The translations under genes and the position numbers were made by a program. This document shows, piece by piece, positions 10,499 through 31,852 of a stretch of 64,000 nt of DNA; the first letter of the stretch is position 1; each line of letters starts with the position of its first letter. Origin of the DNA: an uncultured Acidobacteriota bacterium. Its GTDB lineage: Bacteria; Acidobacteriota; UBA6911. The DNA lies in NCBI GenBank assembly GCA_964534795.1, contig CAZHQK010000180.1, forward strand, positions 4,395-68,394, given 5' to 3'. The notes below the pieces were generated by a model. It worked only from the letters and a program-made list of their open reading frames with translations. It was not told the origin of the DNA and ran no database searches.

Positions 10499-10519
10499 CA
10501 GCCTACCTCGAAAGAGCAC

Positions 10520-10562: not shown

Positions 10563-10593
10563 TTCCCCTCGCCTACGCATCCGCCTGCCGGCG

Positions 10594-11754
10594 TCACGCG
10601 AGGCTCTCGCGCACCGAAAGCGTGATCTTGTAAAAGATCGTGATCATAAGGAAGCCGACCGCCCAGATGGCCAGCGAGATGGCGATTTCCGGCAGGGTGG
10701 GCGTGTACTCCGTCACCGCCCCGAGCGGCGAAGGCACGAAGCCCCCCACGATCAGGCCGAGGCCCTTGTCGATCCAGAGGGAAAGGAATACGGTCACGCA
10801 GGCCGCCGCCAGAAAGGCATCATGGCGGCGCAGCCGCGGCACGAGCAGAATCGCCAGCGACACCAGCGCCAACAGCACCGAGGCCCACATCCAGGGCACG
10901 AGCGAGGCGCGCCCGTGCAGTCCGACGAACAGGTACCGGAAGTGCTCCATGTGCTCCGGGATCCTGCTGTAAAAGACGGTGAAGACCTCCATCAGAATGA
11001 AGAACACGTTGACGATCATCGCGTAGGTCACGATCAGCGACAGCTTCCGTATCGGCTCGCTGCCGGGATCGAAGCGCGTCAGCCGGCGGATGATCATGCA
11101 CAGCAGGATCAGGAGCGCCGGCCCGGCGGAGAACGCCGAGGCCAGGAAGCGCGGTGCCAGGATCGCGGTCAGCCAGAACGAGCGGCCGGGAAGGCCGTTG
11201 TACAGGAAGGCCGTGACCGTGTGAATGCTGATCGCCCAGGGTATGGAGATGATGATGATCGGCTTGATCCATCCGGGAGGCGCGACTGCCTTGCGCTCGG
11301 CGCTCAGCGTCACGAGCGCGATCACCGCATTCAGCAGAAGGTATCCCGTCAGGGATACGAAATCCCAGAACATCATGGAACCGGGCGTGGGGTGGAGCAT
11401 GACATTCAGCACGCGCGTGGGCTGCCCCATGTCGACGAAGATGTAGAGCATGCACATGGTCACGGCCGCGATCGCGAGGAATTCCCCGAGGATCGTGATC
11501 TTGGAGAATACCTTCCAGTCGTGCAGATAGTATGGCAGAACCACCATGACGGCCGAGGCGGCCACGCCCACCAGGAAGGTGAATTGCGCGATGTAGAGCC
11601 CCCAGGTCACGTCACGGCTCAGCCCGGTTATGCCCAGCCCTTGGTCGAACTGGCGCAGATAGGCGATCACCCCCAAGCCGATCACGGCGAACAGGCAGAA
11701 AATCCATGCCCAGTAGCGCCGGCTTCCGACCACGGCCTTTTCGAACATGAACAT
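10594..11754 (-). CDS. dsrP: DsrP, NrfD/PsrC-family integral membrane subunit of the DsrMKJOP complex
   Basis: 386 aa with about 10 TM helices of NrfD-like hydrophobic architecture. It is the last gene of a dsrMKJOP-ordered operon. Confidence 0.85.
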   Translation of the reverse strand: MFMFEKAVVGSRRYWAWIFCLFAVIGLGVIAYLRQFDQGLGITGLSRDVTWGLYIAQFTFLVGVAASAVMVVLPYYLHDWKVFSKITILGEFLAIAAVTMCMLYIFVDMGQPTRVLNVMLHPTPGSMMFWDFVSLTGYLLLNAVIALVTLSAERKAVAPPGWIKPIIIISIPWAISIHTVTAFLYNGLPGRSFWLTAILAPRFLASAFSAGPALLILLCMIIRRLTRFDPGSEPIRKLSLIVTYAMIVNVFFILMEVFTVFYSRIPEHMEHFRYLFVGLHGRASLVPWMWASVLLALVSLAILLVPRLRRHDAFLAAACVTVFLSLWIDKGLGLIVGGFVPSPLGAVTEYTPTLPEIAISLAIWAVGFLMITIFYKITLSVRESLA

Positions 11755-11763
11755 GGGAGCACC

Positions 11764-12486
11764 TCACACGATGTAATAGATTTCGGGGGCGGTGCCGAGT
11801 TCCGCCTTGCGCCGGATGGCGAAGTTGGTGCGCAGCAGCTCGCGCACCGCCGAGCCGGGGTCTTCCAGGTCCCCGAACACCAGGGCCTTTTCCTCGCAGG
11901 CTTCCACGCAGGCGGGCGCCTGTCCGCGCGCGAGGCGCTCCTCGCAGAACGTGCATTTTTCCACCACGCCCTTCGTCCGGGTCGGATAATCCGGGTCGAT
12001 GCGCGCGATGTGCGGGCGCGGGTCAAGCCAGTTGAAGCTGCGCGAGCCGTACGGGCAGGCCGCCATGCAGTAGCGGCAGCCGATGCACCGGTGCCAGTCC
12101 ATCATGACGATCCCGTCCTCCCTCTTCCAGGTGGCCCGGGTCGGGCAGACGCGCACGCAGGGCGGGTTGTCGCAGTGATTGCAGAAGACCAGGAAGGGCT
12201 GGTCGCGAAAGACTTCGTTCACATAGGGCCCGCGCTCGGAAACGAATGCTTCCTGGAACGGCTCCTTCCAGATCCACTTGATTTCGTGCGCGCGGTTCGG
12301 GAAATCGGGTACGTTGTGCACCCGATGACAGGCCTGGATGCAGCGGTCGCACCCCTTTTCCTTCAGGCACTTCCGCGCATCGATGACCATGGCCCAGCGG
12401 CGCGCCGCCGCTTGCGCCGCGACCCGGCGGCCGGCGAGCGCCGCCATGGAAAAGCAACCCAGTCTGAGGAATTCCTTCCTATTCAT
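11764..12486 (-). CDS. dsrO: DsrO, periplasmic 4Fe-4S ferredoxin-like subunit with a Tat signal
   Basis: In-frame ATG at 12484-12486 (MNRKEFLRLGCFSMAALAG...) with a Tat-like motif. Multiple CxxCxxCxxxCP ferredoxin motifs place it in the NrfC/PsrB family. It overlaps dsrJ by 8 nt. Confidence 0.85.
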   Translation of the reverse strand: MNRKEFLRLGCFSMAALAGRRVAAQAAARRWAMVIDARKCLKEKGCDRCIQACHRVHNVPDFPNRAHEIKWIWKEPFQEAFVSERGPYVNEVFRDQPFLVFCNHCDNPPCVRVCPTRATWKREDGIVMMDWHRCIGCRYCMAACPYGSRSFNWLDPRPHIARIDPDYPTRTKGVVEKCTFCEERLARGQAPACVEACEEKALVFGDLEDPGSAVRELLRTNFAIRRKAELGTAPEIYYIV

Positions 12487-12919
12487 GAACCACCTCGCTG
12501 GAGTTCGCCCCTGCGGCGCGGGCCGCCCGGGTCTGCGCAACGGTTGCCGGGTCGACATGGCACTCCCAGCAGTAGGGAGTCCGGACGCCCGAGTAGTCAT
12601 GGCAGCGGTCGCAGAATTCAGCCTTGTTGGTATGGCACTGCTTCAGGCAGGTACCGGTGAGGCTGATCGTGTACTCCTTGCCGTCGAAGGCGGTGTAGCG
12701 GCGGTTGTTCTCGCGCACGGCCGCGTCGCGCCACTGCACGAGCAGGCTCATGTGCGAGGTCTTCATGTAATCCGTGGGTGCGACGCACGTGCCGCCGGGC
12801 GGCAGCTTGATCTCCGGCGCCGCGGCGCGCGCACCGGAGGCTGCGTTGTACCAGACGGGGAAGGTGACCAGTCCGAGGAAGAAAACCAAGCCGGCGAATA
12901 TCAGGGCTCGATCACGCAT
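12479..12919 (-). CDS. dsrJ: DsrJ, membrane-anchored triheme cytochrome c
   Basis: 146 aa with an N-terminal TM anchor and three CxxCH motifs (CLKQCH, CDRCH, CWECH). The conserved Cys in ...GGTCVAPTDYM is characteristic of DsrJ. Confidence 0.85.
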   Translation of the reverse strand: MRDRALIFAGLVFFLGLVTFPVWYNAASGARAAAPEIKLPPGGTCVAPTDYMKTSHMSLLVQWRDAAVRENNRRYTAFDGKEYTISLTGTCLKQCHTNKAEFCDRCHDYSGVRTPYCWECHVDPATVAQTRAARAAGANSSEVVHE

Positions 12920-14531
12920 GGGCCGCCGCCTCCTTGTTCTTGAGGCGCTCGCCGCGCAGATCCGTGGTGCGCTCGCGCTCGCCTTTCATGACCAGGGCAT
13001 TGCCGACAAACTCGTGAACACCGCCCACCTCGACCCCCGGCACCCAGTATTCCATGAGCGTCGGCAGGGTCGCCTTGTCGATGGCACAGACGCAGGCCAG
13101 CATGTTGACGCCGTGGCGCTCCCGCACGTAGCGGACCGCATTGGCCCGCGGGAACCCGCCGCGCATGCGCATTTCCGCATTCTCATCGGTTCCCAGACCG
13201 GCGCCGCTGCCGCAGCAAAATGTCTGCTCGCGGATCGTGTTTTCGGGCATCTCGTGGAAATTGCGGCACACGCTGCGCAGGATGTAGCGCGGCTCCTCGA
13301 GCAAACCCATGGCCCGCGCCGGATTGCACGAATCGTGGAAGGTCACGTTCCAGTGATCGTTGCGGCTGGGATCGAGATTGAGCTTGCCGTGGCGGATGAG
13401 GTCGGCGGTGAACTCGCAGATGTGCACCATGCGCGTGGAGCGGGCATGGTCGAAGCGCGTACCCGTGACGGGAGAAACCGGCACTTCCAGGAAGTCGGCC
13501 GGCCCGTTCATCGTGTCCATGTACTGGTGCATCACGCGCCACATGTGCCCGCATTCGCCGCCCAGGATCCACTTGACCTTGAGGCGCCGCGCTTCCGCAT
13601 ACACCTTGGCGTTCAGCCGCTTGATCATCTCGTGCGAGGTGAACAGCCCGAAGTTGCCGCCCTCGGAGGCGTAGGCGCTGAAGGTGTAGTCCAGCCCGAT
13701 CTCATGGAGAACCATCAGATACCCGAGCAGGGTGTAATAATGGGGCGACGCGAAGTAGTCCGCCGAGGGCACGATGAAGAGAACCTCGGCCCCCTTCTTC
13801 ATGATCGGAGCCTCGACCCGCACCCCGGTGATCTCTTCCAGCTCGTCGACGGCGAACTCGATGCTGTCCTTGAAACCGTGCGGCTGGACACCGAGGTGAT
13901 TGCCGGTACGGTGGCAGTTGGCCACCGGCTCGAGTACCCAGTTGATATTGCAGCCGATCAGGTTCAGCAGCTCCCGCCCGATCATGGTCACTTCGGCAGT
14001 GTCGATGCCGTACGGGCAGAAGACCGAGCAACGCCGGCACTCGGTGCACTGGTAGAAGTAGTAGAACCATTCCTTGATCACATCCTCGGTGAGCTCGCGG
14101 CCCCCGGCCAGCGGTCCGAAGAGGCGCCCGGCGGGCGTGAAGTAGCGGCGGTAGACCGAGCGGATCAGCTCGGCGCGCAGCACGGGCATGTTCTTGGGAT
14201 CGCCCGACCCTAGGTAATAGTGGCATTTGTCGGCGCAGGCGCCGCAGCGCACGCAGATGTCCATGAAGAGGCGGAACGAGCGGTATTTCTCCAGCCTCTC
14301 CTTCATTCCCTCGAGGATGATGCGTTTCCAGTCGGCCGGCAGCTTCCAGTCCTTGTCGAAGGGCTGCCACTCCCTGGGATTCGGCAGGCCCAGGTACTCA
14401 AGGTTCTTCGGCAGCGCACTGTAGCAGAAGGTGCCCTTGCGGAATTCGACGCTCGGGTCCATCCAGCTCTTCTTGGGGGGCCGGTAATCGATCCGGACGA
14501 GTTGTTCGGGTCTGGGCGTCGTTTCGGTCAT
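12912..14531 (-). CDS. dsrK: DsrK, HdrD-like catalytic Fe-S subunit with CCG domains
   Basis: 539 aa with two ferredoxin-type Cys clusters (CVRCGACADKC, CTECRRCSVFCP) and CCG motifs (FHDSCNPAR..., FCCGSGAG). It sits between dsrM and dsrJ. Confidence 0.9.
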   Translation of the reverse strand: MTETTPRPEQLVRIDYRPPKKSWMDPSVEFRKGTFCYSALPKNLEYLGLPNPREWQPFDKDWKLPADWKRIILEGMKERLEKYRSFRLFMDICVRCGACADKCHYYLGSGDPKNMPVLRAELIRSVYRRYFTPAGRLFGPLAGGRELTEDVIKEWFYYFYQCTECRRCSVFCPYGIDTAEVTMIGRELLNLIGCNINWVLEPVANCHRTGNHLGVQPHGFKDSIEFAVDELEEITGVRVEAPIMKKGAEVLFIVPSADYFASPHYYTLLGYLMVLHEIGLDYTFSAYASEGGNFGLFTSHEMIKRLNAKVYAEARRLKVKWILGGECGHMWRVMHQYMDTMNGPADFLEVPVSPVTGTRFDHARSTRMVHICEFTADLIRHGKLNLDPSRNDHWNVTFHDSCNPARAMGLLEEPRYILRSVCRNFHEMPENTIREQTFCCGSGAGLGTDENAEMRMRGGFPRANAVRYVRERHGVNMLACVCAIDKATLPTLMEYWVPGVEVGGVHEFVGNALVMKGERERTTDLRGERLKNKEAAAHA

Positions 14532-14533
14532 CG

Positions 14534-15526
14534 CTACTCCCTCTCGAGCGGCAACCCGGCGGCCTTGATCTTGTCATGGAACTCGTGTTCCCACTCTTCG
14601 TAAGTGTGGACGTTGACCGGGTAATTCCAGGGATTGACGTGCCGCACCATGCGGTTGTTGTTGGCCAGATTCCTGGTGGGGCTGAGGAAGACCCCCGCCA
14701 TGTGCATCAGCTTGCTGAAAGGAAAATAGGCGATCAGGGTGCAGAGAAACAGGAGATGGGCATAGAACAGCCACCCCACGGCGGGGGGCGTCGCCGGCGC
14801 AAAGGTCACCAGCCCCATGGCGAACTGTTTGACGGCCAGCAGGTCGATCTTGGCGAAGTAGCGCATGAGGATGCCGGTCGCCGCCAGCCCCAGGAGCAGC
14901 AGGAGCGCGAAGTAATCCGTAAAGAGCGAGATGTAGCGCACCTGGGGGCTGCCGAGCCTGCGGTAGAGCAGGTAGGCCAGCGCCGCGCCCAAAAACACGT
15001 CGGTCAGCAGCAGCTCCGGCGTGCCCACCTGGAAGAAGCCGTCCAGCGTCGCCAGGGCGAGCACCCAGTTCGGGACGGGCTCCATGAAAAAGCGCAGGTG
15101 CCGGAGGAGAACGACGAGGAAGGACCAGTGGAACGCAAGGGCGCCCAGCCACAACCATTTCTCCTCGCCGTAGACCAGCCTGGGCCCGGGACGCAGCTCG
15201 GCCCGCGTATTGCGGAAGAGCGAGCGGAAAAGCAGAATCTCCAGAGCCATGCGCGCCGCCGTGCCCAGCTTCGTGTAGGGGCTTTCCAGCCAGCTCGCCC
15301 GGATCCAAGGCAGCGACTTCTGCTGGCCGCAGGTGGTGGTGATGCGAAAGGGAACGGGCGACGAGGCCCAGCGCGCAACCCGCAGGATCATGCCCAGAAT
15401 GAAGGTGGTGATCGCGGCATAGGGAACGATCACGCCGATCAGGCTGCGCATCCCGCTTGCCTGTGCGCCCAGCGCTCCGATCGCGGCGATCACCACGACT
15501 GCGCCCAGCGCGGCCATGACATTCAT
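14534..15526 (-). CDS. dsrM: DsrM, NarI/HdrE-like dihaem cytochrome b membrane subunit
   Basis: 330 aa with 5-6 TM helices and conserved His pairs, and a cyt b-like C-terminal tail. It is the first gene of the MKJOP set. Confidence 0.85.
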   Translation of the reverse strand: MNVMAALGAVVVIAAIGALGAQASGMRSLIGVIVPYAAITTFILGMILRVARWASSPVPFRITTTCGQQKSLPWIRASWLESPYTKLGTAARMALEILLFRSLFRNTRAELRPGPRLVYGEEKWLWLGALAFHWSFLVVLLRHLRFFMEPVPNWVLALATLDGFFQVGTPELLLTDVFLGAALAYLLYRRLGSPQVRYISLFTDYFALLLLLGLAATGILMRYFAKIDLLAVKQFAMGLVTFAPATPPAVGWLFYAHLLFLCTLIAYFPFSKLMHMAGVFLSPTRNLANNNRMVRHVNPWNYPVNVHTYEEWEHEFHDKIKAAGLPLERE

Positions 15527-20387: not shown

Positions 20388-20664
20388 CTCCCTCGCCTTC
20401 GTCGGCCATGATGCCGCTCTTGAGGGCGTCCTTGGACCAGACCGGCAGGGGCCCCATTTCCCCGGTGGTGGGGTCGAGCCTGAGCCTGTAGGAAGCCGTC
20501 ACCTGGAAATGCTCCAGCATCCAGCGCCAGCCGCGCACGAAATAGCCGCACTGGTCGTTGAAGCAGACGTACTGATACTCCCCGCTCCAGCTGCTCAGCT
20601 GGGGGTTGGCCCACCGCACCATGGGCCGCCCGCAGTGGGGGCAAATCGGCGGCGCAGCGGCCAT
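20380..20664 (-). CDS. small zinc-ribbon protein (94 aa)
   Basis: Two CxxC/CxxxxC pairs ([15 protein letters not shown]), an acidic tail and a GGAGG RBS. It overlaps the ykgJ-like start by 8 nt. Confidence 0.45.
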
Positions 20665-20727: not shown

Positions 20728-22662
20728 CTAGCCTCCCAGGAGCTCGTGCTCCTTGGGCTGCGCGAACACATAGCGTACCGGCCGCGCAAAGACCTCCCAC
20801 TGGTCGGTCTTGGGATCGTACTTGCAGTTGGCGAACACGCGCCACTTTTCCTCGTCGAGCTTCGGGCGATCGGCGCGGAAGTAATAGCCCGGCCAGCGCG
20901 TCTCCTCGCGGAAGAGCATGGTCCGGACATGGGCTTCCGCCTGCCACATGCGATGCACGTTCTCCCAGCAACGCATGAGCTCGTGCAGGTTGGCGGCCGC
21001 CAGCTTGGTCGAATCCTCCTTGAGGAGGGCGATCAATTCGAGAGCCCTCTTCAGGAGCGCCTCGTTGGTGGTGAACTGCGCGCTGATGCCGCCCGCGTAC
21101 TCATCCATGATCTTCTGCAGGCGGAACATGAACATGCGCGGCTTGATGTAGTTGGGATTGATCTCGGGATCGGTGGTCTCGCCCATGTGCTTCTGGTAGG
21201 TCTCCAGAGGCTGCAGGATCTCGACCATCTTGCGATTGATGGTCTCGTCGTCCACCTTGGGCATCGTGTTGTTCTCCACGATGAATTTGATGGCCGACTT
21301 GGCCGCGATCCGGCCCTCGGTGCACGAGCCCGAGGAGAACTTGTGGCTCGAGGCCCCCGAGGCGTCGCCCGCGCAGAAGAGCCCCTTGACCGTGGCCATG
21401 TTGGCATAGCCCCAGAAGTACTCGCCGCGGGTCTCGTCGCTCTGCAAATCCTCGGGACCGCTCACCCAGGCGCCGCTGGCTCCCGAGTGCGATCCGATGA
21501 AGTACGGCTCGGCCGCAGCGATCTCGGAACTCTTCACCTCGGGCTCCACGTTGGTGGCCGCCCACAGGATGGCCTGGGAGATGGTCATGTCAAGAAAGTC
21601 TTCCCAAGCCTCGGACTCGAGTTCCTTCATCTTTTTCTTGTAGGCCTTGGGGTCGTCCTTGTAGGCATCGGCGATGGCCTGGATGGCTTCCTCGGTTCTC
21701 ATGTAGATGGGCCCCTTGCCCTCCATGATATCGAGCATGCCCAGGTAATTGCGCAGGTTGGCGGGGATCGGCTTCACCCGGCCGTAAGGCCCCCACTTCT
21801 CGAGCTCGGCCTTGCGCTCCACCATGTAATCGCCGCCCTGCGAGTTGGTGGCCCGGGACTTGAAGAGCAGGAACCACGCACCCACCGGCCCGTAGGCATC
21901 CTTGAAGCGCACGGGAATGAAACGCACTTCCTGGCAGGTCATCTCGGCACCCGCCTGGATGGTGAAATAGGCCGAAGAACCGGAATTCCAGGGTGGATAC
22001 CACGCGCGGCCCACGCCCTCGCCCGAGCTCCTCGGCTTGAAGACGTGCACGGCACCGCCCATGGCCACCAGGGTGGCCTTCGCCTTGAAGACGTAAAACT
22101 TGTTTTCGCGCACCGAAAAGCCCACGGCCCCGGCGCAGCGATCGCCGTCCATGAGCGGACCGACGATGAAGACGCGCTCGAAGATCTGCCCGACGCCGGA
22201 CTGGAGCAGGGCGTTCTTGGCCGCCTCGGCCACGACGACCTTGTACGACTCGCCGTTGATCATCAGCTGCCAGCGGCCCTCGTGGACGTAAGCGCCGTTC
22301 TCGTCTTTCCAGATGGGGAGTCCCCATTTTTCGAATAGATGAACGGTCGAATCGACGTGACGGGCGATGTTGGCCACCAGGTCCTCGCGCGTGATGCCCA
22401 TCAGGTCGTTGCGCACGTAGTCGACATAGTCCTTTACCGTGTTCGTGCCGTCGCACAGGCCGACGTACTGGTTGATGGCCGAGAGGCCCATCGCCACGGC
22501 TCCGGAACGGTCGACCGCCGCCTTGTCGACCAGGGTCACCTTCAGGCCGTTCTGCTTGGCCCAATACGCCGCCTCGACCGCGGCGCCGCAGGCGGCCATG
22601 CCGCCGCCCAGAATCAACAGATCAGTTTCCACCACGACTTTTTCGAAATCGGCCATGTTCAT
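20728..22662 (-). CDS. aprA: adenylylsulfate (APS) reductase alpha subunit
   Basis: 644 aa with an FAD-binding N-terminus (LILGGGMAACGAAVEAAYW) and AprA-specific blocks (YFTIQAGAEMT, WGYANMATVKGLFCAGDASGAS). Confidence 0.95.
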   Translation of the reverse strand: MNMADFEKVVVETDLLILGGGMAACGAAVEAAYWAKQNGLKVTLVDKAAVDRSGAVAMGLSAINQYVGLCDGTNTVKDYVDYVRNDLMGITREDLVANIARHVDSTVHLFEKWGLPIWKDENGAYVHEGRWQLMINGESYKVVVAEAAKNALLQSGVGQIFERVFIVGPLMDGDRCAGAVGFSVRENKFYVFKAKATLVAMGGAVHVFKPRSSGEGVGRAWYPPWNSGSSAYFTIQAGAEMTCQEVRFIPVRFKDAYGPVGAWFLLFKSRATNSQGGDYMVERKAELEKWGPYGRVKPIPANLRNYLGMLDIMEGKGPIYMRTEEAIQAIADAYKDDPKAYKKKMKELESEAWEDFLDMTISQAILWAATNVEPEVKSSEIAAAEPYFIGSHSGASGAWVSGPEDLQSDETRGEYFWGYANMATVKGLFCAGDASGASSHKFSSGSCTEGRIAAKSAIKFIVENNTMPKVDDETINRKMVEILQPLETYQKHMGETTDPEINPNYIKPRMFMFRLQKIMDEYAGGISAQFTTNEALLKRALELIALLKEDSTKLAAANLHELMRCWENVHRMWQAEAHVRTMLFREETRWPGYYFRADRPKLDEEKWRVFANCKYDPKTDQWEVFARPVRYVFAQPKEHELLGG

Positions 22663-22669
22663 CCCTCCT

Positions 22670-23116
22670 CTACTCGCACGACTTCAATGTGAACAATTTG
22701 TTCAAGCGGTTGGACGCCGGCTCGGTGAAGAGGTTGGGGCTGTTCAGATCGCCGACCGTCGGGAACCCGCCATCCGGCACCGCCTGTCCCTCGGGGGTCG
22801 TGCGGATGGGGAACTTGAAGCGCTTCAGTGTACCGTTGCGGAATTTCACGGTCCACATGATCGAATCGGTTGAACGCAGGGGCGTAACGGATGCCCCCAT
22901 CGGGACGAAGTCGGCGTAGCCGCGGATCTCGATGGCCTGGGTAGGGCAGATCTTCACGCAGTTGAAGCACTCCCAGCACATCATGACGTCGCGGTTGTAC
23001 GCCTTCATCTTCTCCCGGTCCAGGACCATGAGGTCGTTGGGGCAAATGTACTGGCAAGCGGTCTTGTCCAGCGCCTTGCACCCATCGCATTTTTCGATAT
23101 TGACGTAACTCGGCAT
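22670..23116 (-). CDS. aprB: APS reductase beta subunit (2x[4Fe-4S])
   Basis: 148 aa, MPSYVNIEKCDGCKALDKTACQYICPNDLM...CWECFNCVKICPTQAI. This is the classic AprB. Confidence 0.95.
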   Translation of the reverse strand: MPSYVNIEKCDGCKALDKTACQYICPNDLMVLDREKMKAYNRDVMMCWECFNCVKICPTQAIEIRGYADFVPMGASVTPLRSTDSIMWTVKFRNGTLKRFKFPIRTTPEGQAVPDGGFPTVGDLNSPNLFTEPASNRLNKLFTLKSCE

Positions 23117-23133: not shown

Positions 23134-23739
23134 TCAGAACCGCCCGCCGGGGGAAACGAGCGGTTCCAGCTTGTCGGACTTATGACGACGGTAGAAACAC
23201 TCCCGCCGGCTGAGTTCCCCGAACCTGCAATTTTCGCGATAAGAAATCCCGCATTGCAGGCATACCTCATCCGGCCGGGAGCCGTGTTGGACGATCGATG
23301 CAGCCAGACGGTCCAGAAGCTCGGCCGCCCTCTGCAGCTCACCCGGATCGAACCGGCCCAACACCTCGGCCGCCTTGCGGTGCCTGGCCTCCTCGAAGGA
23401 CCGAAGCAGCGCGCGGCTTTCGTCGGTGAGACGGAAGCAGCTGCTGCGCCGATCCTCGGCCCTCTCGGCACGTGTCAGCAGCCGGCGCCGTACCAGCTTC
23501 TCGACCGTCTTGCTGGCGGCGGCGTCGCTGACCCCGAGGAAATCCGCTGCATCGCCGACCGTGTGTTCGCCGGTCGCTGAACCGAAAAACAGCAGCTTGA
23601 GATGAGAAAAACTCAGCGATTCGTCCGCGCTCTCCCGCAGGATCTCCTGCTCGAAAGCGCGGCGGATCGCTGCGGCGAAGACGTGCGCACTGCCCAGAAA
23701 ATCCGTCCGAACCTCGGCACTCCTCGCCTCGCAAGCCAT
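23134..23739 (-). CDS. MarR-family transcriptional regulator with a Cys-rich C-terminal extension, lead gene before aprBA
   Basis: ATG at 23737-23739 with GGAGGAAG upstream. The wHTH region runs LSFSHLKLLFFGSATGEHTVGDAADFLGVSDAAASKTVEKLVRRRLLTR. The C-terminus is ..CLQCGISYRENCRFGELSRRECFYRRH. It lies 17 bp upstream of aprB on the same strand. Confidence 0.6.
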   Translation of the reverse strand: MACEARSAEVRTDFLGSAHVFAAAIRRAFEQEILRESADESLSFSHLKLLFFGSATGEHTVGDAADFLGVSDAAASKTVEKLVRRRLLTRAERAEDRRSSCFRLTDESRALLRSFEEARHRKAAEVLGRFDPGELQRAAELLDRLAASIVQHGSRPDEVCLQCGISYRENCRFGELSRRECFYRRHKSDKLEPLVSPGGRF

Positions 23740-24081: not shown

Positions 24082-24150
24082 TGCAAAAAAAAATTTAAAT
24101 ATGATGACAAGCCGGTCAATTGCGTTTATTATTAACCGCCGAAAGGATCC
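24082..24150 (+). promoter_or_regulatory. conserved 69-nt upstream element, copy 1 (qmoABC leader)
   Basis: Ungapped 48/69 identity to 36638..36706. The core GCGTTTATTATTAACCG(C/G)CGAAA(G/A)GATCC matches at 27/29. GATGACAA is shared 14 nt upstream. A GC hairpin (cccgcc-tgaaggtcc-ggcggg) follows directly. Confidence 0.55.
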
Positions 24151-24608: not shown

Positions 24609-25868
24609 ATGAATGCCAAAGCAAAACCCATTCTAGTAATCGGCGGGGGCATAGCCGGGATGACGGCGGCGGTCGAAGCCGCCGAGGTAGGGTATCCCGT
24701 CGTCCTCGTGGAAAAGGAAGCGTATCTGGGAGGACGCGTAATGCGCACCTACCGCTACTTCCCGAAGATGTGTCCCCCGACCTGCGGCTTCGAAATCAAC
24801 GTGCGCCGGATCCGGCAGAATCCCAGAATCACGGTCCACACGCTTGCGACCGTGGAGGAGATCACCGGCCGCGCGGGTGCTTTCCGCGCCAGAATCAGGA
24901 AGCGCCCCCGATACGTGACCGGCCGGGAACCGCTGAGCGATTCCCTGGCGCAACAGCTGACCTCCGAGCGTCCCGACGACTTCAACCTGGGCATGGGCCG
25001 GACCAAGGCACTCTATCTGCCGCACGCAATGGCCTACCCGCCGCAGTATGTGCTGGACCGGGACGCCCTCTCCGCAGCCGACGCCGAAATCCTCAGGAAA
25101 AACGCCGCCGGGGCCGTCGATCTCGACATGGCCGAAGAGGAGCTGCTGGTCGAGGCGGGCACCGTCATCATCGCCACCGGATGGCGCCCGTATGACGCCG
25201 CCAAGCTCGACCATCTGGGCTTCGGAAAATGCCGCAACGTCATCACCAATGTCATGATGGAACGGCTGGCGGCGCCCGGCGGGCCGACGGGCGGAGAGAT
25301 CCTGCGGCCCTCCGACGGCAGGAAAGCGGAGAACGTGGCCTTCGTCCAATGCGCCGGTTCGCGCGACGAGAACCATCTTCCCTACTGCTCGGCCGTCTGC
25401 TGCATGGCTTCGCTCAAGCAGGCCAGGTACCTGAGGGAAAAGAACGCGAACGCCAAGGCGACCATCTTCTACATCGATATCCGCGCCGTGGGCCGCCTCG
25501 AGAAGTTTTATTACGACATGCTCGAGGATGCCAACGTCACCTATGTCAAGGGAAAGGTGGCCGGAATCAGCGAAGAACCCGGAAGCGGCAACCTGATCCT
25601 GGACGTGGAGGACACGCTGGCCGGCAGAAAGCAGCATCGCGGATTCGATCTTGCGGTCCTGGCGACCGGCATGGTGCCCAATACCGCCGATGCCGGCCTG
25701 CCCCTGCAGCTCCAATGCGACGACTACGGTTTCATCGACGGCACCACGGACATCGAGGGCGTGTATGCGGCCGGCTGTGTCAAGCGCCCGTGCGACGTTG
25801 CGCGTACGACCAAGGACGCCACCGCGGCTGCGTTGAAGGCCATCCAGTGCCTTCAGAGGGGAGAATGA
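24609..25868 (+). CDS. qmoA: QmoA (HdrA-like FAD flavoprotein)
   Basis: 419 aa with an FAD Rossmann start (ILVIGGGIAGMTAAVEAAE) and the HdrA-like Cys cluster (CAGSRDENHLPYCSAVCC). Confidence 0.9.
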   Translation: MNAKAKPILVIGGGIAGMTAAVEAAEVGYPVVLVEKEAYLGGRVMRTYRYFPKMCPPTCGFEINVRRIRQNPRITVHTLATVEEITGRAGAFRARIRKRPRYVTGREPLSDSLAQQLTSERPDDFNLGMGRTKALYLPHAMAYPPQYVLDRDALSAADAEILRKNAAGAVDLDMAEEELLVEAGTVIIATGWRPYDAAKLDHLGFGKCRNVITNVMMERLAAPGGPTGGEILRPSDGRKAENVAFVQCAGSRDENHLPYCSAVCCMASLKQARYLREKNANAKATIFYIDIRAVGRLEKFYYDMLEDANVTYVKGKVAGISEEPGSGNLILDVEDTLAGRKQHRGFDLAVLATGMVPNTADAGLPLQLQCDDYGFIDGTTDIEGVYAAGCVKRPCDVARTTKDATAAALKAIQCLQRGE

Positions 25869-25872
25869 ACCG

Positions 25873-28146
25873 ATGAAAGACAAGATCGGCGTCTTTATCT
25901 GCACGGGATACGGGATCGCGGAAGCGCTCGATATCGAAGCGCTGCGCAAGGTGGTCACCTCGGAATGCAAGGTGCCCTTCTGCAAGACGGTGGATTCCTG
26001 TGAGGGGCCCGCCCTGCAAGGGATCATCGAGGATATTGCCAGGGAAGGCCTGGCCAAGGTCGTCATTGCCGGGATTTCGCCGCGCCGCTACCCGGACGTC
26101 GCTTTCCCCGAGGGCGTCGTCGTCGAAAGGTTTGCGCTCCTCGAACACGTGGTATGGACGCAACCGGCGCGCGACGAGGATACGCAGATGATGGCGGAGG
26201 ACTACCTGCGCATGTACGTCACCAAGGTGCGCGAGATGGAACCTCCCCAGCCCTTCAAGCCGGAAGAAACCCTCGACAAGAGCATCCTGGTGGTCGGAGG
26301 CGGGATCACCGGGATGACCGCGGCGCTCGAAGGCGCCCGGGCCGGGTACCGCGTGCGCCTGGTCGAGAAGAGCGACCGCCTGGGAGGCTGGCTCGCCCGG
26401 CAGCACAAGTCGGTGCCCACCAAGCCGCCTTACAGAGAACTGGAGCCGACGGGGGTCGAGGATCTCATCAAGAAGGTCGAGAGCGACCCGCACATCACCG
26501 TCTACAAGTCGGCCGCCACCGGCCGCATCGCGGGCGCCCCCGGACTTTTCGACGTGACCCTGCATTCGACCGGCAACGGCCGCCCCGCCGGGGAAGTCGT
26601 CGATACCTTCCGCGTGGGGGCGATCATCCAGGCGACCGGCTGGAGACCGGCGGAACTCCGAGATACCCTGCCCTACGGCCGGCTGCCCGACGTCATCCGC
26701 AACGTCGAGCTGGAAGAAATGGTGCGCAGCCAAGGGCGCATCATCCGCCCTTCGGACGGCAGGGAGGTCAAGAGCATCGCCTTCATCCAGTGCGGCGGAT
26801 CGCGGCGCAAGGAACACCATTCCTACTGTTCTTCGATCTGCTGTCTGACCTCGCTCAAGCAGGCCCTCTACCTGCGCGAGCGGCAGAGCGACGGCAAGGC
26901 TTACATCTTCTACGAATTCATCCGGACGCCGGGGCACTACGAAGATTTCTACCGCCGGGTGCAGCAGGATCCCGGCGTGTTCCTCACCAAGGGTGAGGTG
27001 ACCGACGTGACCCGCGAGTCGGACGGCTCGTTGCTGGTCACGGCCCAGGACACCATGCTGGGCGAGCGGATCCAGGTCCGGGTCGACCTGGTCGTGCTCG
27101 CGGCCGGGATGGTGCCGAATTCGGCCGACGGCGAGGCTATCCGGGCGCTGCACGACGCCCAGGCTACGGCGACGCGCGGCGAATCGGAGGTGCAGCGCAA
27201 GGAGGCCGCCGAAAAGGCCGAACGGCTCAAGCACCACGAGGGCACGGAGATACTCAACCTGGTCTACCGCCAGGGACCCGACCTGCCGATCCTGCAGTAC
27301 GGCTTTCCCGACTCCCATTTCATCTGCTTCCCCTATGAGAGCCGGCGCACGGGAATCTATCCCGCGGGCAGCGTACGCCAGCCCATGGACGGAGTCGGCG
27401 CCCGCGAGGACGCGGCCGGTGCCGCCTTGAAGGCAATCCAGTGCGTGGAGATGACCGCCAGGGGCGAAGCGGTCCACCCGCGCGCGGGCGACAAATCCTA
27501 CCCTGAATTCTTCCTCCAGCGCTGCACCCAGTGCAAGCGCTGCACCGAGGAATGCCCCTTCGGCGTGCTCAACGAGGACGTCAAGGGCACCCCCCTGCTC
27601 CAGGCCACCCGCTGCCGGCGCTGCGGCGTCTGCATGGGGGCCTGCCCCGAGCGCATCGTGTCCTTCAAGGACTATTCGGTGCATATCATCGCCGAGATGA
27701 TCAAGGCGGTGGAGGTTCCGGACGAAGCCGAGGAAAAGCCGAGAGTCCTGGCCCTGCTGTGCGAAAACGACGCCATCCCCGCCCTGGACCTCGTGGGTCT
27801 GCACCGCCTCCATTACAACCCGTTCGTGCGCGTCGTCCCGGTGCGCTGCCTGGGCTCGGTCAACGCCGTCTGGGTCTCCGAGGCGATTTCGGCCGGCTAC
27901 GACGGCGTGCTGCTGGTGGGCTGCAAATACGGCGACGATTACCAGTGCCACTTCATCAAGGGGAGCGAGCTGGCGTTCACCCGCGGCGGGAACATCCGGG
28001 AAAAGCTCAAGCAGATGTCCATGGAGAACGAGAGGGTCGAACTCCACCAGCTACAGATCAACGAGTATGACAAGCTGCCGATGATTTTCGACAACTTCAT
28101 GAAAGTCATCGAAAAGTTCGGCATGAATCCATTCAAGGGCATGTGA
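25873..28146 (+). CDS. qmoB: QmoB (HdrA-like flavoprotein with ferredoxin and MvhD-like C-terminal domains)
   Basis: 757 aa with FAD motifs, the HdrA Cys cluster, 2x CxxCxxCxxxCP and an MvhD-like tail. Confidence 0.9.
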   Translation: MKDKIGVFICTGYGIAEALDIEALRKVVTSECKVPFCKTVDSCEGPALQGIIEDIAREGLAKVVIAGISPRRYPDVAFPEGVVVERFALLEHVVWTQPARDEDTQMMAEDYLRMYVTKVREMEPPQPFKPEETLDKSILVVGGGITGMTAALEGARAGYRVRLVEKSDRLGGWLARQHKSVPTKPPYRELEPTGVEDLIKKVESDPHITVYKSAATGRIAGAPGLFDVTLHSTGNGRPAGEVVDTFRVGAIIQATGWRPAELRDTLPYGRLPDVIRNVELEEMVRSQGRIIRPSDGREVKSIAFIQCGGSRRKEHHSYCSSICCLTSLKQALYLRERQSDGKAYIFYEFIRTPGHYEDFYRRVQQDPGVFLTKGEVTDVTRESDGSLLVTAQDTMLGERIQVRVDLVVLAAGMVPNSADGEAIRALHDAQATATRGESEVQRKEAAEKAERLKHHEGTEILNLVYRQGPDLPILQYGFPDSHFICFPYESRRTGIYPAGSVRQPMDGVGAREDAAGAALKAIQCVEMTARGEAVHPRAGDKSYPEFFLQRCTQCKRCTEECPFGVLNEDVKGTPLLQATRCRRCGVCMGACPERIVSFKDYSVHIIAEMIKAVEVPDEAEEKPRVLALLCENDAIPALDLVGLHRLHYNPFVRVVPVRCLGSVNAVWVSEAISAGYDGVLLVGCKYGDDYQCHFIKGSELAFTRGGNIREKLKQMSMENERVELHQLQINEYDKLPMIFDNFMKVIEKFGMNPFKGM

Positions 28147-28197
28147 GCGCGGCGCGACCGCCCGCGGCTCGAGAACCATGCAGGGTGCGGAGGAAAC

Positions 28198-29469
28198 ATG
28201 ACAGTGGAAAGTGCCGTCAAGCGGGAAAGCGGCGCAGGAATGCCGGTGCCTGCGGCGCCGGGGCCCGGGCTTTCCGGCGACACGCGACCGGTGCGCATCG
28301 AACCGGACCTGGAGTTCATCCGTGCGCTTATCAGCGGGGGGGCGGACACGGTCAAGAAGTGTTTCCAGTGCGGAACGTGCTCGGCGACCTGCACCCTTTC
28401 GCCCGATCCCGAGCCGTTTCCGCGCAAGGAAATGGCCTGGGCGCTGTGGGGCTGGAAGGACCGGCTGGTGCGCGATCCCGATGTCTGGCTGTGCCACCAG
28501 TGCCAGGACTGCTCCGTTCGCTGCCCGCGGGGCGCGCGGCCGGGTGACGTGCTGGCGGCGGTGCGCCAGGAATGCGTCGCGCACTATGCCTTCCCCCGTT
28601 TCCTGGCGCGCTGGATGAGCCGGCCGCAGTACGTCCCCCTGCTCCTGGCCATCCCCATAGCACTTCTGACCTTGGCCCTGCTGCTGCGGGATACGCTCGC
28701 GGCCGCCCTGGGTTTCTCACCTCAACCGGGGGCGCGCATCATCTATGCCTACTCGAGCGTCTTCCCGCACTGGCTGCTGAACGGCTTCTTCGGTCTCTTC
28801 AGCCTGCTGGCATTGCTCGCCATGCTGGTGAGCGCCCGGCGCTTCTGGCGGGCTCTCGAAGAAGCGGATCGCATGCCGCGCATCCGGGGGCTTGCCGCCA
28901 GCACCTGGGCGGCGCTGCGCAGCATCGCCACGCACAGGAATTTCGACCTGTGCACGGCGGCGCGGCCGCGCTACCTTTCCCATCTCTGCGTGCTCGCCGG
29001 TTTCGTAGCCCTGACGCTGGTCACGCTATGGGTGATCACCGCCGAATACAACCCCCTGATCCGCTCCGACTTCGTCTATCCTTTCGGCTTCTGGAATCCG
29101 TGGAAGATGCTGGCCAACGTGGGCGGAATCGCCGTGCTGGCCGGCTGCCTGCTCATGGCCTGGGAGCGCCTGCGCGAGGGCGGCTCGATGGGCATCGGGG
29201 CCTATTTCGACTGGGTGCTGCTCGCCGACCTGTTTCTGGTCGTCGCCACGGGATTCGCCACCGAGGTGCTGCACTACCTGCGCCTGGAACCCCACCGACA
29301 TATCGCCTACTTCACGCACCTGGTCTTCGTCTTCACGCTGCTGATCTACCTGCCCTATTCGAAACTGGCCCACCTGGTCTACCGCGCCCTGGCCATGATC
29401 CATGCCGACCGCATCGGGCGCATCCTGGGAAGCGCCCCGACTCCGGGCGCTGAAAGGACGGGGCGGTGA
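28198..29469 (+). CDS. qmoC: QmoC (HdrC-like Fe-S domain fused to an HdrE/NarI-like cytochrome b membrane domain)
   Basis: 423 aa with an N-terminal CFQCGTCSATC...CHQCQDCSVRCPRG, then 5-6 TM helices. Confidence 0.85.
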   Translation: MTVESAVKRESGAGMPVPAAPGPGLSGDTRPVRIEPDLEFIRALISGGADTVKKCFQCGTCSATCTLSPDPEPFPRKEMAWALWGWKDRLVRDPDVWLCHQCQDCSVRCPRGARPGDVLAAVRQECVAHYAFPRFLARWMSRPQYVPLLLAIPIALLTLALLLRDTLAAALGFSPQPGARIIYAYSSVFPHWLLNGFFGLFSLLALLAMLVSARRFWRALEEADRMPRIRGLAASTWAALRSIATHRNFDLCTAARPRYLSHLCVLAGFVALTLVTLWVITAEYNPLIRSDFVYPFGFWNPWKMLANVGGIAVLAGCLLMAWERLREGGSMGIGAYFDWVLLADLFLVVATGFATEVLHYLRLEPHRHIAYFTHLVFVFTLLIYLPYSKLAHLVYRALAMIHADRIGRILGSAPTPGAERTGR

Positions 29470-29486
29470 CCCCGAAGGAGAAAACC

Positions 29487-29855
29487 ATGAACGAAACGCC
29501 GCAAAGTTCGCGCAGTGTTCTTTTCCTGGCCGTCCCGGCGCTGATCCTGCTGCTGCCTTTCGCCTACAGCCTGGTCGCCTACGTGGCCGGCGCGGACACC
29601 GCCGCCGCCCGGCCCTTCCTCGAAAAGCCCGATCCCAAGTATCGGAACTGCGTGCGCGAAACCGCCTACATGCGTTTCCATCACTGGGAGCTGCTCAGAA
29701 CGGTGCGCGAGGAGGTGGTGCGCCAGGGGAAGCCGAGCGAGACGGGCCTGAAGCAATGCAAGAATTGTCACACGAGCAGGGAGCGCTTCTGCAATCAGTG
29801 CCACAACGCGGTCACTCTGAACCCCGACTGTTTCGGATGCCATTACTATCCGTGA
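29487..29855 (+). CDS. DsrJ-like membrane-anchored triheme cytochrome c (paralog)
   Basis: ATG at 29487 with AAGGAGA upstream, and an N-terminal TM anchor. It has three CxxCH (CKNCH, CNQCH, CFGCH) and aligns with DsrJ, including the extra Cys (RNCVRETAYM vs GTCVAPTDYM). Its start is 18 nt after the qmoC stop. Confidence 0.75.
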   Translation: MNETPQSSRSVLFLAVPALILLLPFAYSLVAYVAGADTAAARPFLEKPDPKYRNCVRETAYMRFHHWELLRTVREEVVRQGKPSETGLKQCKNCHTSRERFCNQCHNAVTLNPDCFGCHYYP

Positions 29856-29907
29856 GCACGCAGCCGGCGGTCGGCAAATGCAAGCAGCCTTGGAGGGTCG
29901 AGCGAAA

Positions 29908-30633
29908 ATGGACAGAAGAGAATTTCTGACGGCCGGCGGGGGCCTCCTGTTGGCGGGCGCCGCCGGCACCTATGCGGTACGGTTGCTCACGCAGGCCGGG
30001 GCCGTCGAAGCGGTCACGGCAGGGCGGCACAGGTGGGGCATGGTAGTCGACCTGCGCAAGTGCCGACCGGACTGCACGGCGTGCCTGGAGGCCTGCAGGC
30101 TGGAAAACAACACGGCTTCCGTCGGCGACGCGCGCTGGGACGTGCATTGGATCCGCAAGGTCCATGTCAAGCCGAAGAACGGCGGGGCCGAGCGCTCCGT
30201 GGTGCTCCTGTGCAACCATTGCGACCATCCGCCGTGCGCCCAGGTGTGCCCCGTGCAGGCCACTTACAAGCGTGCGGACGGCATCGTCATCGTGGACCAT
30301 CACCGCTGCATCGGGTGCCGCTACTGCATGATCGCCTGCCCCTACAACGCCCGCTACTTCAATTTCAAGGAAAGCGAGGAGTGGCCCAACAAGGAGTTCC
30401 CCAAACGCTCGCACGGCGTCGCGGAAAGCTGCACGCTGTGCGCCCATCTCCTCGACGTCGGCAAGAAACCGGCGTGCGTCCAGGCCTGCGAGCGCGCACA
30501 GGCCGGAGCGCTCGTCGTGGGCGACCTGAACGATCCGCAGAGCGAGATTTCCAGGTTGGTTTCCGAGAATTCCGTCAAACGGCTCAGGGAGGATCTGGGC
30601 ACGGAGCCCAAGGTTTACTACATCGGATTATGA
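29908..30633 (+). CDS. DsrO-like Tat-exported 4Fe-4S ferredoxin subunit (NrfC/PsrB family)
   Basis: Tat signal MDRREFLTAGGGLLLAGAAG, a GGAGGG RBS and four ferredoxin-type Cys clusters. Confidence 0.8.
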   Translation: MDRREFLTAGGGLLLAGAAGTYAVRLLTQAGAVEAVTAGRHRWGMVVDLRKCRPDCTACLEACRLENNTASVGDARWDVHWIRKVHVKPKNGGAERSVVLLCNHCDHPPCAQVCPVQATYKRADGIVIVDHHRCIGCRYCMIACPYNARYFNFKESEEWPNKEFPKRSHGVAESCTLCAHLLDVGKKPACVQACERAQAGALVVGDLNDPQSEISRLVSENSVKRLREDLGTEPKVYYIGL

Positions 30634-30655
30634 CGGTTCACCTGTGAGGGACGGC

Positions 30656-31852
30656 ATGGAAGTCAAATACGAGCGCATCGCAGGAAACTCCAGGCACTAT
30701 TACCTGGCGCTGGCGGCCTTCGCCGCCGTCGGCCTGGCGGGGGTGCTGTGCACCTTCTGGGTTCTCGGTCAGGGGCTGTGGGTGACCGGCATGTACAACC
30801 GCGTGCCCTGGGGCCTGCAAATCGTCATGGCAATCTATTACATCGGGCTCTCGGCGGGCTCCCTGGTGATCTCCGGCCTCTACGGCGTCTTCGGCAAGCT
30901 GGAGTACAAGCCTTTCGCCAGAACCGCCGTCTATCTCGGCATGCTCTTCATGATCGCCGGCCTGCTTTCCATTCTCACCGACCAGGGCCGGATGGACCGG
31001 GTCTTCGTCCAGCCCTTCGTCCATTTCAACCTCCTCTCCCTGTTCTCGATCAACCCGATGCTGTATATCAGCTACATCCTCATCTGCATCGTCTACCTCT
31101 ACGCGCTCTTCCGGGACAAAAAGAAGCTCACCCGGGTCGTCGCCACCCTGGCCTTCGCCTGGGCTTTCGGCGTCCACAGCGGCACGGGGGCGATCTTCGG
31201 CTTCGGTCCCAGAACGCTCTACGATTCGCCGCTGCTGCCGGCCAGCTTCGTCGTGGCCGCCATGGCCTCGGGCACCGGCCTGATGATCGCCTTGCTCGTC
31301 GCCCTCTTCCGCCTCACCCGCAGGCACCTGGATGACGAGCTGGTCTTCGGGCTGGGACGCCTGCTGGCGCTGTTCGTTCTGGTGGTCCTCTATTTCCTGG
31401 CGGTGGAAAACCTGTATTTGGTTTACCAGGTGGAGTGGCGCGAGGCGGCCCTATACTACCTCTTCGGCGGATTCCACAGCGTGATCTTCTGGGTCGGCCT
31501 CATCGGGCTCGGCTGCGCCGTGCCGCTCTTCCTGCTGTTTTACCCGCGGACCTCGAAGTCGATCCCCTGGGTGGTGACGGCGGGCTGCCTGGTGGTTTTG
31601 GGAGTGCTGTGCGAGCGGTACGTGATCGTGATCCCCGGCCTGACGCGCCCGCCGGAGATTTTCCCCGGGATGGAAGTCAGCGGGCCGGGCCTGATCGAAG
31701 GGGTGGCGAGCTACGCGCCGACGCTCGTCGAATTCTGCCAGGCGCTGGGGGTGCTGGGAATCATCGGATTCCTGTTCCTCGCGGGCCTGAAGGTGTTCAA
31801 GTTGTTGCCGGCCGAGGCGCGCATCGCGAAACAGGCTGGCCCGGCCAGTTGA
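30656..31852 (+). CDS. DsrP-like NrfD/PsrC-family integral membrane subunit
   Basis: About 398 aa with 10 predicted TM segments. A GAGGGA RBS precedes the ATG at 30656. The gene is 11 nt from the preceding Fe-S subunit gene. Confidence 0.8.
   Translation: MEVKYERIAGNSRHYYLALAAFAAVGLAGVLCTFWVLGQGLWVTGMYNRVPWGLQIVMAIYYIGLSAGSLVISGLYGVFGKLEYKPFARTAVYLGMLFMIAGLLSILTDQGRMDRVFVQPFVHFNLLSLFSINPMLYISYILICIVYLYALFRDKKKLTRVVATLAFAWAFGVHSGTGAIFGFGPRTLYDSPLLPASFVVAAMASGTGLMIALLVALFRLTRRHLDDELVFGLGRLLALFVLVVLYFLAVENLYLVYQVEWREAALYYLFGGFHSVIFWVGLIGLGCAVPLFLLFYPRTSKSIPWVVTAGCLVVLGVLCERYVIVIPGLTRPPEIFPGMEVSGPGLIEGVASYAPTLVEFCQALGVLGIIGFLFLAGLKVFKLLPAEARIAKQAGPAS

Follow-up and report, generated by a model that had tools for sequence, protein, structure and literature searches.

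A DsrJOP-like trio follows qmoABC in an uncultured Acidobacteriota bacterium and may extend the Qmo membrane complex

How, or whether, energy is conserved at the menaquinol-to-adenosine 5'-phosphosulfate (APS) step, which passes through the Qmo complex, and what role the DsrJOP subunits play are two questions touched by a gene cluster of an uncultured Acidobacteriota bacterium (GTDB lineage UBA6911). The cluster lies in a stretch of 64,000 nucleotides (assembly GCA_964534795.1, contig CAZHQK010000180.1, positions 4,395 to 68,394 of the forward strand), here called the window and numbered from its first letter, in which six contiguous genes of the + strand, qmoA-qmoB-qmoC-J2-O2-P2, occupy positions 24609-31852. 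J2, O2 and P2, all intact, denote a trio that resembles dsrJ, dsrO and dsrP, and the locus raises the question of whether this trio belongs to Qmo. The reading preferred here, to which slightly better than even confidence is given, is that the six genes constitute one operon for an extended Qmo membrane complex built like DsrMKJOP or Hmc and serving the APS reductase AprAB in this organism.

The cluster opens with qmoA (24609..25868, +) and qmoB (25873..28146, +), which encode HdrA-like flavoproteins of 419 and 757 aa, the former with FAD-binding Pfam families and the latter with ferredoxin and MvhD/FlpD-like domains. They are followed by qmoC (28198..29469, +; 423 aa), in which an HdrC-like 2x[4Fe-4S] domain is fused to a NarI/HdrE-type cytochrome b membrane domain. 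The trio consists of J2 (29487..29855, +), a DsrJ-like membrane-anchored triheme cytochrome c of 122 aa; O2 (29908..30633, +), a DsrO-like ferredoxin of 241 aa predicted to be exported by the twin-arginine translocation (Tat) pathway and to carry four [4Fe-4S] clusters; and P2 (30656..31852, +), an NrfD-family, DsrP2-like integral membrane protein of 398 aa with about 10 helices, presumed to interact with quinones. The junctions measure 17 nt (qmoC-J2), 52 nt (J2-O2) and 22 nt (O2-P2), and the purine-rich sequences GAAGGAG, GGAGGG and GAGGGA, which resemble ribosome-binding sites, precede the starts of J2, O2 and P2, respectively; the initial annotation had given gaps of 18, 52 and 22 nt, each with a strong ribosome-binding site, of which only the first value needs correction. 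Were J2 to start at an alternative GTG at 29466, its gene and the end of qmoC would share 4 nt, which is the commonest layout in related loci. In a consensus scan the whole stretch from qmoA through P2 was free of promoter-like sites, and a single + strand site was found ahead of the cluster, a weak, consensus-only sigma-70-like candidate at 24104..24132 (ATGACA-17-TATTAT, 10/12 matches). Only two + strand terminator-like matches occur from qmoA to P2, both inside P2, and their region-wide count equals the shuffled expectation. The G+C content at third codon positions of the six genes (0.81-0.89) matches that of their neighbours, and three independent assemblies of the organism agree in this arrangement.

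The same gene order recurs across phyla. A scan of one genome per GTDB species with a P2 alignment as query gave 70 loci, onto which the proteins of the window were mapped. Of the genome loci whose P2 reaches 56% identity and that extend 2.6 kb or more upstream, 53/53 contain qmoC-J2-O2-P2, and all of those with 6.4 kb or more show the full qmoA-qmoB-qmoC-J2-O2-P2 order. The hosts are metagenome-assembled genomes (MAGs) of Zixibacteria, Planctomycetota (Phycisphaerales, Pirellulaceae, Thermoguttaceae), Acidobacteriota, KSB1, LCP-89, Calditrichota, Ca. Electryonea, Latescibacterota, Gemmatimonadaceae (Gemmatimonadota) and Ignavibacteria, and three more metagenome contexts, found via J2 homologues, contain the same six genes. 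The median qmoC-J2 gap is -4 nt (n=55) against 67 nt for qmoB-qmoC, and the O2 and P2 genes overlap in three of the 53 loci. The cofactor ligands of J2, O2 and QmoC are conserved across 41 complete clusters, with C55 of J2 (98%) as the only position below 100%. The qmoC-J2 adjacency, which recurs in independent assemblies and in 53 other species, is far beyond chance; the co-transcription of the trio with qmoABC, proposed in the initial annotation, is plausible in view of the junctions and finds strong support in the conserved order and the median overlap of 4 nt. The exceptions to this order are more distant P homologues, namely dsrAB-adjacent O/P genes, the dsrOPMKJ loci of Archaeoglobales and one Omnitrophota locus. 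In one metagenome lineage (L076, 7932-8649) two small unannotated open reading frames (146 and 91 aa) stand between qmoB and qmoC.

The first three genes were assigned with evidence of different kinds. QmoC matches the NCBIfam qmoC equivalog NF038018 over its full length (390.4 bits, cut-off 300; model positions 1-360/360), as well as the HdrC (56 bits) and TmcC models. Its cluster cysteines C55/58/61/65 and C99/102/105/109 are invariant in 41 sequences, as are the membrane-domain residues H246, H262, H359, H374 and H392, for which haem binding is predicted; these eight Cys and five His bear out the initial description of QmoC as a cytochrome b fused to an HdrC-like Fe-S module. QmoC and the DsrM of the window share a last-helix motif of the NarI/HdrE type, and each matches the model of the other. 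NCBIfam returned no QmoA or QmoB family, so that the assignment of these two genes rests on gene order, domains and source names: two HdrA-like flavoprotein genes lie directly 5' of qmoC; the best matches of QmoA are HdrA2/HdrA over the flavin region, and the protein shares 62-77% identity with the product of the gene that opens the conserved cluster at other loci; QmoB has HdrA2 and VhuD-like matches together with Pfam FlpD and Fer4_9, and 'quinone-modifying oxidoreductase subunit QmoB' is the name given to a cluster member in one source.

J2 has a single N-terminal hydrophobic helix (residues 11-29) and three haem motifs, CKNCH, CNQCH and CFGCH, all invariant in the family. In the alignment with bacterial and archaeal DsrJ, residues C55 (98%), M62 (100%) and H66 (100%) fall on the motif CV..T.YM..SH, confirming the extra Cys that had been recognised by comparing NCVRETAYM with TCVAPTDYM, and they are candidate distal ligands (His/Cys, His/Met and His/His, as for DsrJ). 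DsrJ (NF038038) is the only NCBIfam model matched by the 122-aa protein (64.6 bits, E 1e-17), at a score below the cut-off of 100. J2 is 28-35% identical to archaeal and bacterial DsrJ, which are 40-50% identical to each other, falls outside both, and lacks an insertion of about 12-15 residues found in DsrJ. The family comprises 324 clusters at 90% identity, all annotated as hypothetical and none with a Pfam match. The AlphaFold2 model of J2 is of low quality (predicted local distance difference test, pLDDT, 58; predicted template modelling score, pTM, 0.31).

O2 contains an RREFL Tat motif and 16 Cys residues, and R3, R4 and all 16 Cys are invariant across the complete clusters. It is the member of the trio that passes its equivalog, DsrO NF045797, with 295.4 bits against a cut-off of 200; lower scores were obtained with TtrB (179, cut-off 416), ArrB (154, cut-off 450), NrfC (149, cut-off 378), QrcC (137, cut-off 400) and HmcB (78). 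Its identity is 41-46% to archaeal and bacterial DsrO, 36% to NrfC and 29% to HybA, and a PDB sequence search gave generic NrfC-type matches only. In a neighbour-joining tree all Dsr-type O proteins, O2 included, are separated from NrfC/HybA with 100% bootstrap, against a thin outgroup of NrfC, HybA and one Omnitrophota sequence; in the same tree O2 and some dsrAB-adjacent O proteins form an 82% clade that is sister to canonical DsrO.

P2 matches Pfam NrfD PF03916 (177.6 bits), and its best NCBIfam match is DsrP NF045798, with 72.7 bits far under the cut-off of 350, which the DsrP of the window exceeds with 474; other models score lower (NrfD 54 bits, cut-off 348; QrcD 49, cut-off 570). P2 is 37-39% identical (about 230 bits) to the DsrP of Archaeoglobales from two dsrOPMKJ loci, dsrOPMKJ being the gene order of the purified A. 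fulgidus complex, and 24% identical (66 bits) to the bacterial DsrP encoded 19 kb away in the window. DsrP has been divided into DsrP1, of Desulfovibrio-type sulfate reducers, and DsrP2, of sulfur oxidisers and Archaeoglobus (Calisto & Pereira 2021, PMC8076601), and the greater closeness of P2 to the Archaeoglobales sequences fits this split, in a comparison made up of Archaeoglobales and window DsrP. In addition, P2 carries R321 at the 'gate' Arg position of the family (E. coli NrfD R306, HybB R329), where the canonical DsrP of the window has Lys330, as described for DsrP1. The AlphaFold2 model of P2 (pLDDT 64, pTM 0.65) displays the two four-helix bundles of the NrfD/PsrC fold and superposes on ActC and ActF of the alternative complex III (ACIII) with TM-scores of 0.61-0.73, ActC being the nearest (0.71-0.73). 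With 134/398 invariant positions and a mean identity of about 70% across phyla, P2 is unusually conserved for a cofactor-less membrane protein. Sequence searches of the PDB brought up neither a solved DsrMKJOP structure nor any close relative of J2 or P2. Public annotations of P2 homologues read 'molybdoenzyme membrane anchor', 'DMSO reductase membrane subunit' or 'HybB-like', with no molybdopterin or hydrogenase subunit encoded nearby.

The window also contains, as the initial annotation had stated, the canonical dsrMKJOP set (10594..15526, -), whose five products all score above their NCBIfam equivalog cut-offs: DsrM (14534-15526, -; 508 bits), DsrK (12912-14531, -; 730 bits), DsrJ (12479-12919, -; 148.7 bits), DsrO (11764-12486/12600, -; 299 bits) and DsrP (10594-11754, -; 474 bits). 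The presence of both sets within 64 kb and the passing DsrO score of O2 could be taken to mean that the trio is a recent in-genome duplicate of dsrJOP, as had been proposed, or else an assembly artefact or a chance juxtaposition. This explanation is refuted and its probability is close to nil: J2, O2 and P2 are 33%, 41% and 24% identical to the DsrJ, DsrO and DsrP of the window, P2 is nearer to archaeal DsrP, the third-position G+C content is that of the neighbouring genes, and the junctions recur in independent assemblies and in 53 species. Low identity and archaeal affinity thus rule out a recent duplication, and J2O2P2 is an old lineage of its own, spread across phyla. Its DsrJOP-like rather than Psr/Nrf/ACIII character, on the other hand, holds, since DsrJ, DsrO and DsrP are the best models of the three proteins and the NrfC-family phylogeny places O2 among the Dsr-type O proteins. 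All scores for molybdoenzyme (Psr/Ttr/Dms/Arr) and Nrf/ACIII/Qrc families remain under the family cut-offs, and neither a catalytic molybdopterin subunit nor the multihaem cytochrome genes of such families were found in the cluster, be it that of the window or those of the related loci. DsrJ, DsrO and DsrP are encoded with dsrM and dsrK, whereas the trio follows qmoC and dsrMK lie elsewhere; because J2 and P2 do not reach their cut-offs and all three differ in context, the trio is classified as a sister lineage of DsrJOP. As regards the canonical DsrJ, its first haem motif (residues ~91-96) is CLKQCH, a CX3CH variant, in place of the CxxCH of relatives such as the CLKCH of an Acidobacteria MAG (L041); the exact protein occurs on 6 contigs of independent assemblies, so that a one-off assembly error does not account for it.

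The extended complex that the cluster would encode can be compared with several known systems. As in DsrMKJOP (Hme), which occurs in sulfate reducers, sulfur oxidisers and Archaeoglobus, the side that faces the periplasm would consist of an anchored triheme cytochrome c, a four-cluster Tat ferredoxin and an NrfD-type protein of 10 helices, with a NarI/HdrE-type dihaem cytochrome b as membrane partner and an Hdr-like unit in the cytoplasm; here, however, these last two parts are QmoC and QmoAB (HdrC- and HdrA-like) instead of DsrM and DsrK (HdrD-like, with a CCG cluster), the presumed acceptor is AprAB instead of the DsrC trisulfide, and the gene context is qmo and not dsrMK. The likeness extends to HmcABCDEF of Desulfovibrio and the related Tmc, Nhc and Ohc, in which a cytochrome c, an NrfC-like FeS protein and an NrfD-like subunit are linked with a cytochrome b of the NarI type and an Hdr-like protein in the cytoplasm, although Hmc has a 16-haem cytochrome, an HdrD-like HmcF and no HdrA-like flavoproteins, and O2 scores low with HmcB (78 bits). 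With the canonical QmoABC of Desulfovibrio, Chlorobium and Archaeoglobus the cluster shares the qmoA-qmoB-qmoC order, the full-length QmoC and, in the window, adjacent aprBA, and it differs in the three further genes with overlapping or very short junctions; canonical Qmo is not known to include subunits of the periplasmic or NrfD type, and qmoC is the last gene of its operon. In peatland Acidobacteria, moreover, aprBA-qmoABC runs straight into dsrAB with no trio.

On the model of these systems, J2 with three c haems, O2 with four [4Fe-4S] clusters and P2 with an NrfD-type quinone site would make up a periplasm-facing module, which may dock on the cytochrome b domain of QmoC as DsrJOP does on DsrM and HmcABC with HmcEF. 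Such a complex would possess two quinone-interacting membrane subunits, QmoC and P2, and a redox wire could lead from the outer face (P2 site, O2 clusters, J2 haems) to the b haems and HdrC-like clusters of QmoC and on to QmoA/QmoB, from which, in this genome, electrons would pass to AprAB, encoded divergently next door. The benefit might be the one proposed for DsrJOP, namely quinol oxidation by P2 at the outer face or quinone cycling between P2 and QmoC, perhaps with proton translocation through P2. The nearly isoenergetic menaquinol-to-APS step would then add to the proton-motive force or run in reverse. The six genes are contiguous on a single strand, their order is kept across phyla and the redox ligands are conserved; from this we infer the supercomplex and its service to AprAB.

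Observations of several kinds weigh against this reading, and a first group concerns the attachment of the trio to QmoC. Mirror-tree comparison of the distances among Qmo proteins with those among JOP proteins gives r 0.3-0.7, a correlation that favours the complex but is just moderate; no QmoC-J2 or J2-O2 fusion proteins occur among the best 120 J2 homologues; and the canonical QmoABC of Desulfovibrio functions without JOP, which implies that JOP is dispensable for Qmo function. The trio could accordingly act as a free-standing quinol:cytochrome c (or cytochrome c:quinone) oxidoreductase, a minimal ACIII- or Qrc-like unit co-expressed with Qmo, since both would act on the menaquinone pool, and unattached to QmoC. 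The absence of QmoC fusions among those homologues agrees with this, as do the closest structural matches of P2 (ActC and ActF), the use of NrfC/NrfD-type pairs as portable modules in many complexes (PMC8076601), and the presence in Spirochaetales and delta-type MAGs of O/P homologues beside dsrAB, lacking both qmo and J. ACIII and QrcABCD indeed offer the same wire from a quinone site through FeS clusters to c haems, but their ActB-type large subunit, penta- or hexahaem cytochrome and second NrfD-type subunit have no counterpart in the cluster. A free-standing unit is nevertheless judged unlikely: all 53 P2 of at least 56% identity are linked to qmoC, the qmoC stop and the J2 start usually overlap, which is typical of subunits made together, J2 provides just three haems and a membrane anchor with no catalytic partner gene, and DsrJOP, the nearest characterised relatives, are subunits that work with a NarI/HdrE-type cytochrome b, the kind of domain found in QmoC.

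The O/P sets just mentioned belong to the loci L057, L063, L066 and L071 (~9250-11200) of Spirochaetales and 'delta proteobacterium' MAGs. They encode homologues 52-55% identical to O2/P2, are divergent beside dsrAB-dsrN, include neither a J-type cytochrome nor qmo, have a gene for a small Cys-rich protein next to them, and may represent a J-less DsrOP variant.

The remaining points concern the partner of the complex. In the window, aprB (22670..23116, -; Pfam APS-reductase_C and Fer4; 81% identical to the AprB of L041) is divergent from qmoA and is followed by aprA (20728..22662, -; FAD_binding_2 and Succ_DH_flav_C; named 'adenylylsulfate reductase subunit A' by one source). Between aprB and qmoA lies a gene for a MarR-family regulator (23134..23739, -; Pfam MarR_2, HTH_27, MarR), without counterpart at this position in the other genomes, which have a kinase/response-regulator pair by the cluster. 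An island of about 30 kb comprises aprBA, dsrABDC, dsrT-MKJOP, dsrN, sat and a second dsrMK, that is, the whole sulfate-reduction pathway, and no second qmo set was found in the island or in the 64 kb window. In two other loci, L041 (Acidobacteria) and L056 (Planctomycetota), aprBA-qmoABC-J2O2P2 stand on one strand with dsrMKJO downstream. The tie between Qmo and AprAB proposed here is drawn from this adjacency, divergent in the window and upstream on the same strand in L041 and L056.

Most of the other loci, by contrast with these three, are without aprBA. In about 28 of them P2 is directly followed by genes for a PAS histidine kinase (~499 aa) and for a response regulator (~159 aa) that has a receiver domain only, and in 8-10 further loci a kinase/regulator pair lies 5' of qmoA; taken together, the kinases (~420-500 aa) have AtoS-like as their best NCBIfam match and the regulators (~150-160 aa) DVU0259/DivK-like, below cut-off. 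Examples of the pair are found at 11294-13217 in L004, 12549-14385 in L076 and 12535-14422 in L080, whereas the window has none. The other flanks of the apr-less clusters are housekeeping genes, and metagenome contexts show riboflavin or citrate-synthase neighbours. Since most loci are flanked by the kinase/regulator pair, the link to APS reductase is direct just in the window, L041 and L056. The QmoAB of L041 and L056 are the most divergent of the set (52-56% versus 68-72% among the rest), while the QmoAB of the window are 70-74% identical to those of the widespread, mostly apr-less clade, to which its cluster therefore belongs. The Apr and Dsr proteins of the window are closest to the L041 Acidobacteria MAG (81-85%), and its Qmo and JOP proteins to assorted phyla.

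Further points come from one published supplementary table, which is the sole evidence for second qmo sets (Neukirchen et al. 2023, Suppl. Table 1, PMC10504309). For LCP-89 B3_LCP (our L008) it lists the synteny 'DsrP-DsrO-[unlabelled]-QmoC-QmoB-QmoA' and also a separate AprA-AprB-Sat-Qmo locus; for Zixibacteria B5_G4 it gives 'QmoC-DsrO-DsrP', with Sat-AprB-AprA listed apart and a further QmoB beside DsrA, and for Zixibacteria SURF_9 a Sat-AprBA-linked qmo of the ordinary kind. Because separate aprBA-linked loci are tabulated, the JOP-linked qmo is a second set in at least LCP-89 and Zixibacteria, and in lineages of this sort the JOP-linked Qmo may have another partner or role.

The complex could thus exist as proposed with a partner other than AprAB, as a specialised Qmo paralogue under its own two-component system, for which the aprBA adjacency seen here would be secondary; its task might be a different redox reaction of sulfur compounds or thiols, or sulfite oxidation run backwards, or it might function as an isoenzyme for particular conditions. 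This explanation, which draws on the kinase/regulator linkage, the metagenome contexts without aprBA, the second aprBA-sat-linked qmo of LCP-89 and Zixibacteria and the place of the window QmoAB in the widespread clade, is given a low probability, equal to that of the free-standing unit. It has to account for the adjoining aprBA in the window, L041 and L056, for a 64 kb window that holds sat, aprBA, dsrABDC, dsrTMKJOP and dsrN with a single qmo set, and for a QmoC that is a full-length qmoC equivalog. An extended Qmo complex that serves AprAB in this organism is retained as the preferred reading. The trio was also considered as a partner of the second dsrMK and rejected in this role, its cross-species linkage being to qmoC and not to dsrMK.

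The six-gene Qmo arrangement is common, strongly conserved and apparently undescribed. According to the initial annotation, an arrangement both common and documented in close relatives would have refuted it; common it is (53/53 loci), but full-text literature searches, main surveys included, found no paper describing qmoABC followed by the trio, which appears solely as unlabelled raw synteny entries in the supplementary table cited above. The same large synteny study calls the function of DsrO 'homologous clades' not clear (PMC10504309), and in the 2024 study establishing the DsrMKJOP reaction the part played by DsrJOP is termed 'an enigma', with quinone cycling or proton pumping put forward as proposals (PMC10861901). 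A JOP-type module on Qmo suggests a general accessory of Hdr-like menaquinol-oxidising complexes, not specific to DsrC reduction, and would offer a second independent system in which quinone cycling, proton pumping and periplasmic electron entry can be studied. In a broader and more tentative form, held at somewhat less than even confidence, JOP would be a portable module, made of periplasmic parts and a quinone site, that docks onto different NarI/HdrE-type b cytochromes, and QmoABC-J2O2P2 a six-subunit complex that had escaped notice, is widespread in uncultured phyla and has moved among them by gene transfer with its own sensor kinase, in which the APS/sulfite step is coupled to the proton-motive force or made reversible; if true, it would be a natural second instance for solving the role of DsrJOP. 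This significance is bounded by the tie to AprAB, which is direct in a minority of genomes, and what goes beyond gene content we infer.

There are also consequences for annotation. J2 is called 'hypothetical' and P2 'molybdoenzyme membrane anchor', and DiSCo labels O2 and P2 as DsrO and DsrP, so that the dsrMKJOP set of a MAG could look more complete than it is when O2/P2 are counted in this way. In MAGs of Zixibacteria, Planctomycetota, Acidobacteriota and the like, either error can lead to wrong conclusions about the pathways present.

Other genes of the region are of interest in their own right. Convergent with P2 is a gene (31922-33574, -) for a pyridine nucleotide-disulfide oxidoreductase of the CoA-disulfide-reductase type with a C-terminal rhodanese domain, an architecture like that of the persulfide/polysulfide reductase Npsr; a tetrapyrrole methylase gene and dsrN come next. 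Between aprA and dsrA two small genes (19557-20664, -) encode proteins of 276 aa (CxxCxxCC, YkgJ-like) and 94 aa (Ogr/Delta-type zinc finger), a pair that recalls the 'hyp-hyp' after aprA in Ca. Thermonerobacter (PMC6338057). Directly after sat, a second dsrM-like gene (38258-39193, +; 311 aa, NarI-type) and a dsrK-like gene (~39190-40800, +; CCG domain) form a pair without JOP genes of its own, so that DsrMK is encoded once alone and once within the full dsrMKJOP. Finally, subunit I of a cytochrome bd oxidase (Pfam 557 bits) is encoded at 41694-43112 (+), some kb downstream of the island, and suggests that this putative sulfate reducer tolerates or respires oxygen.

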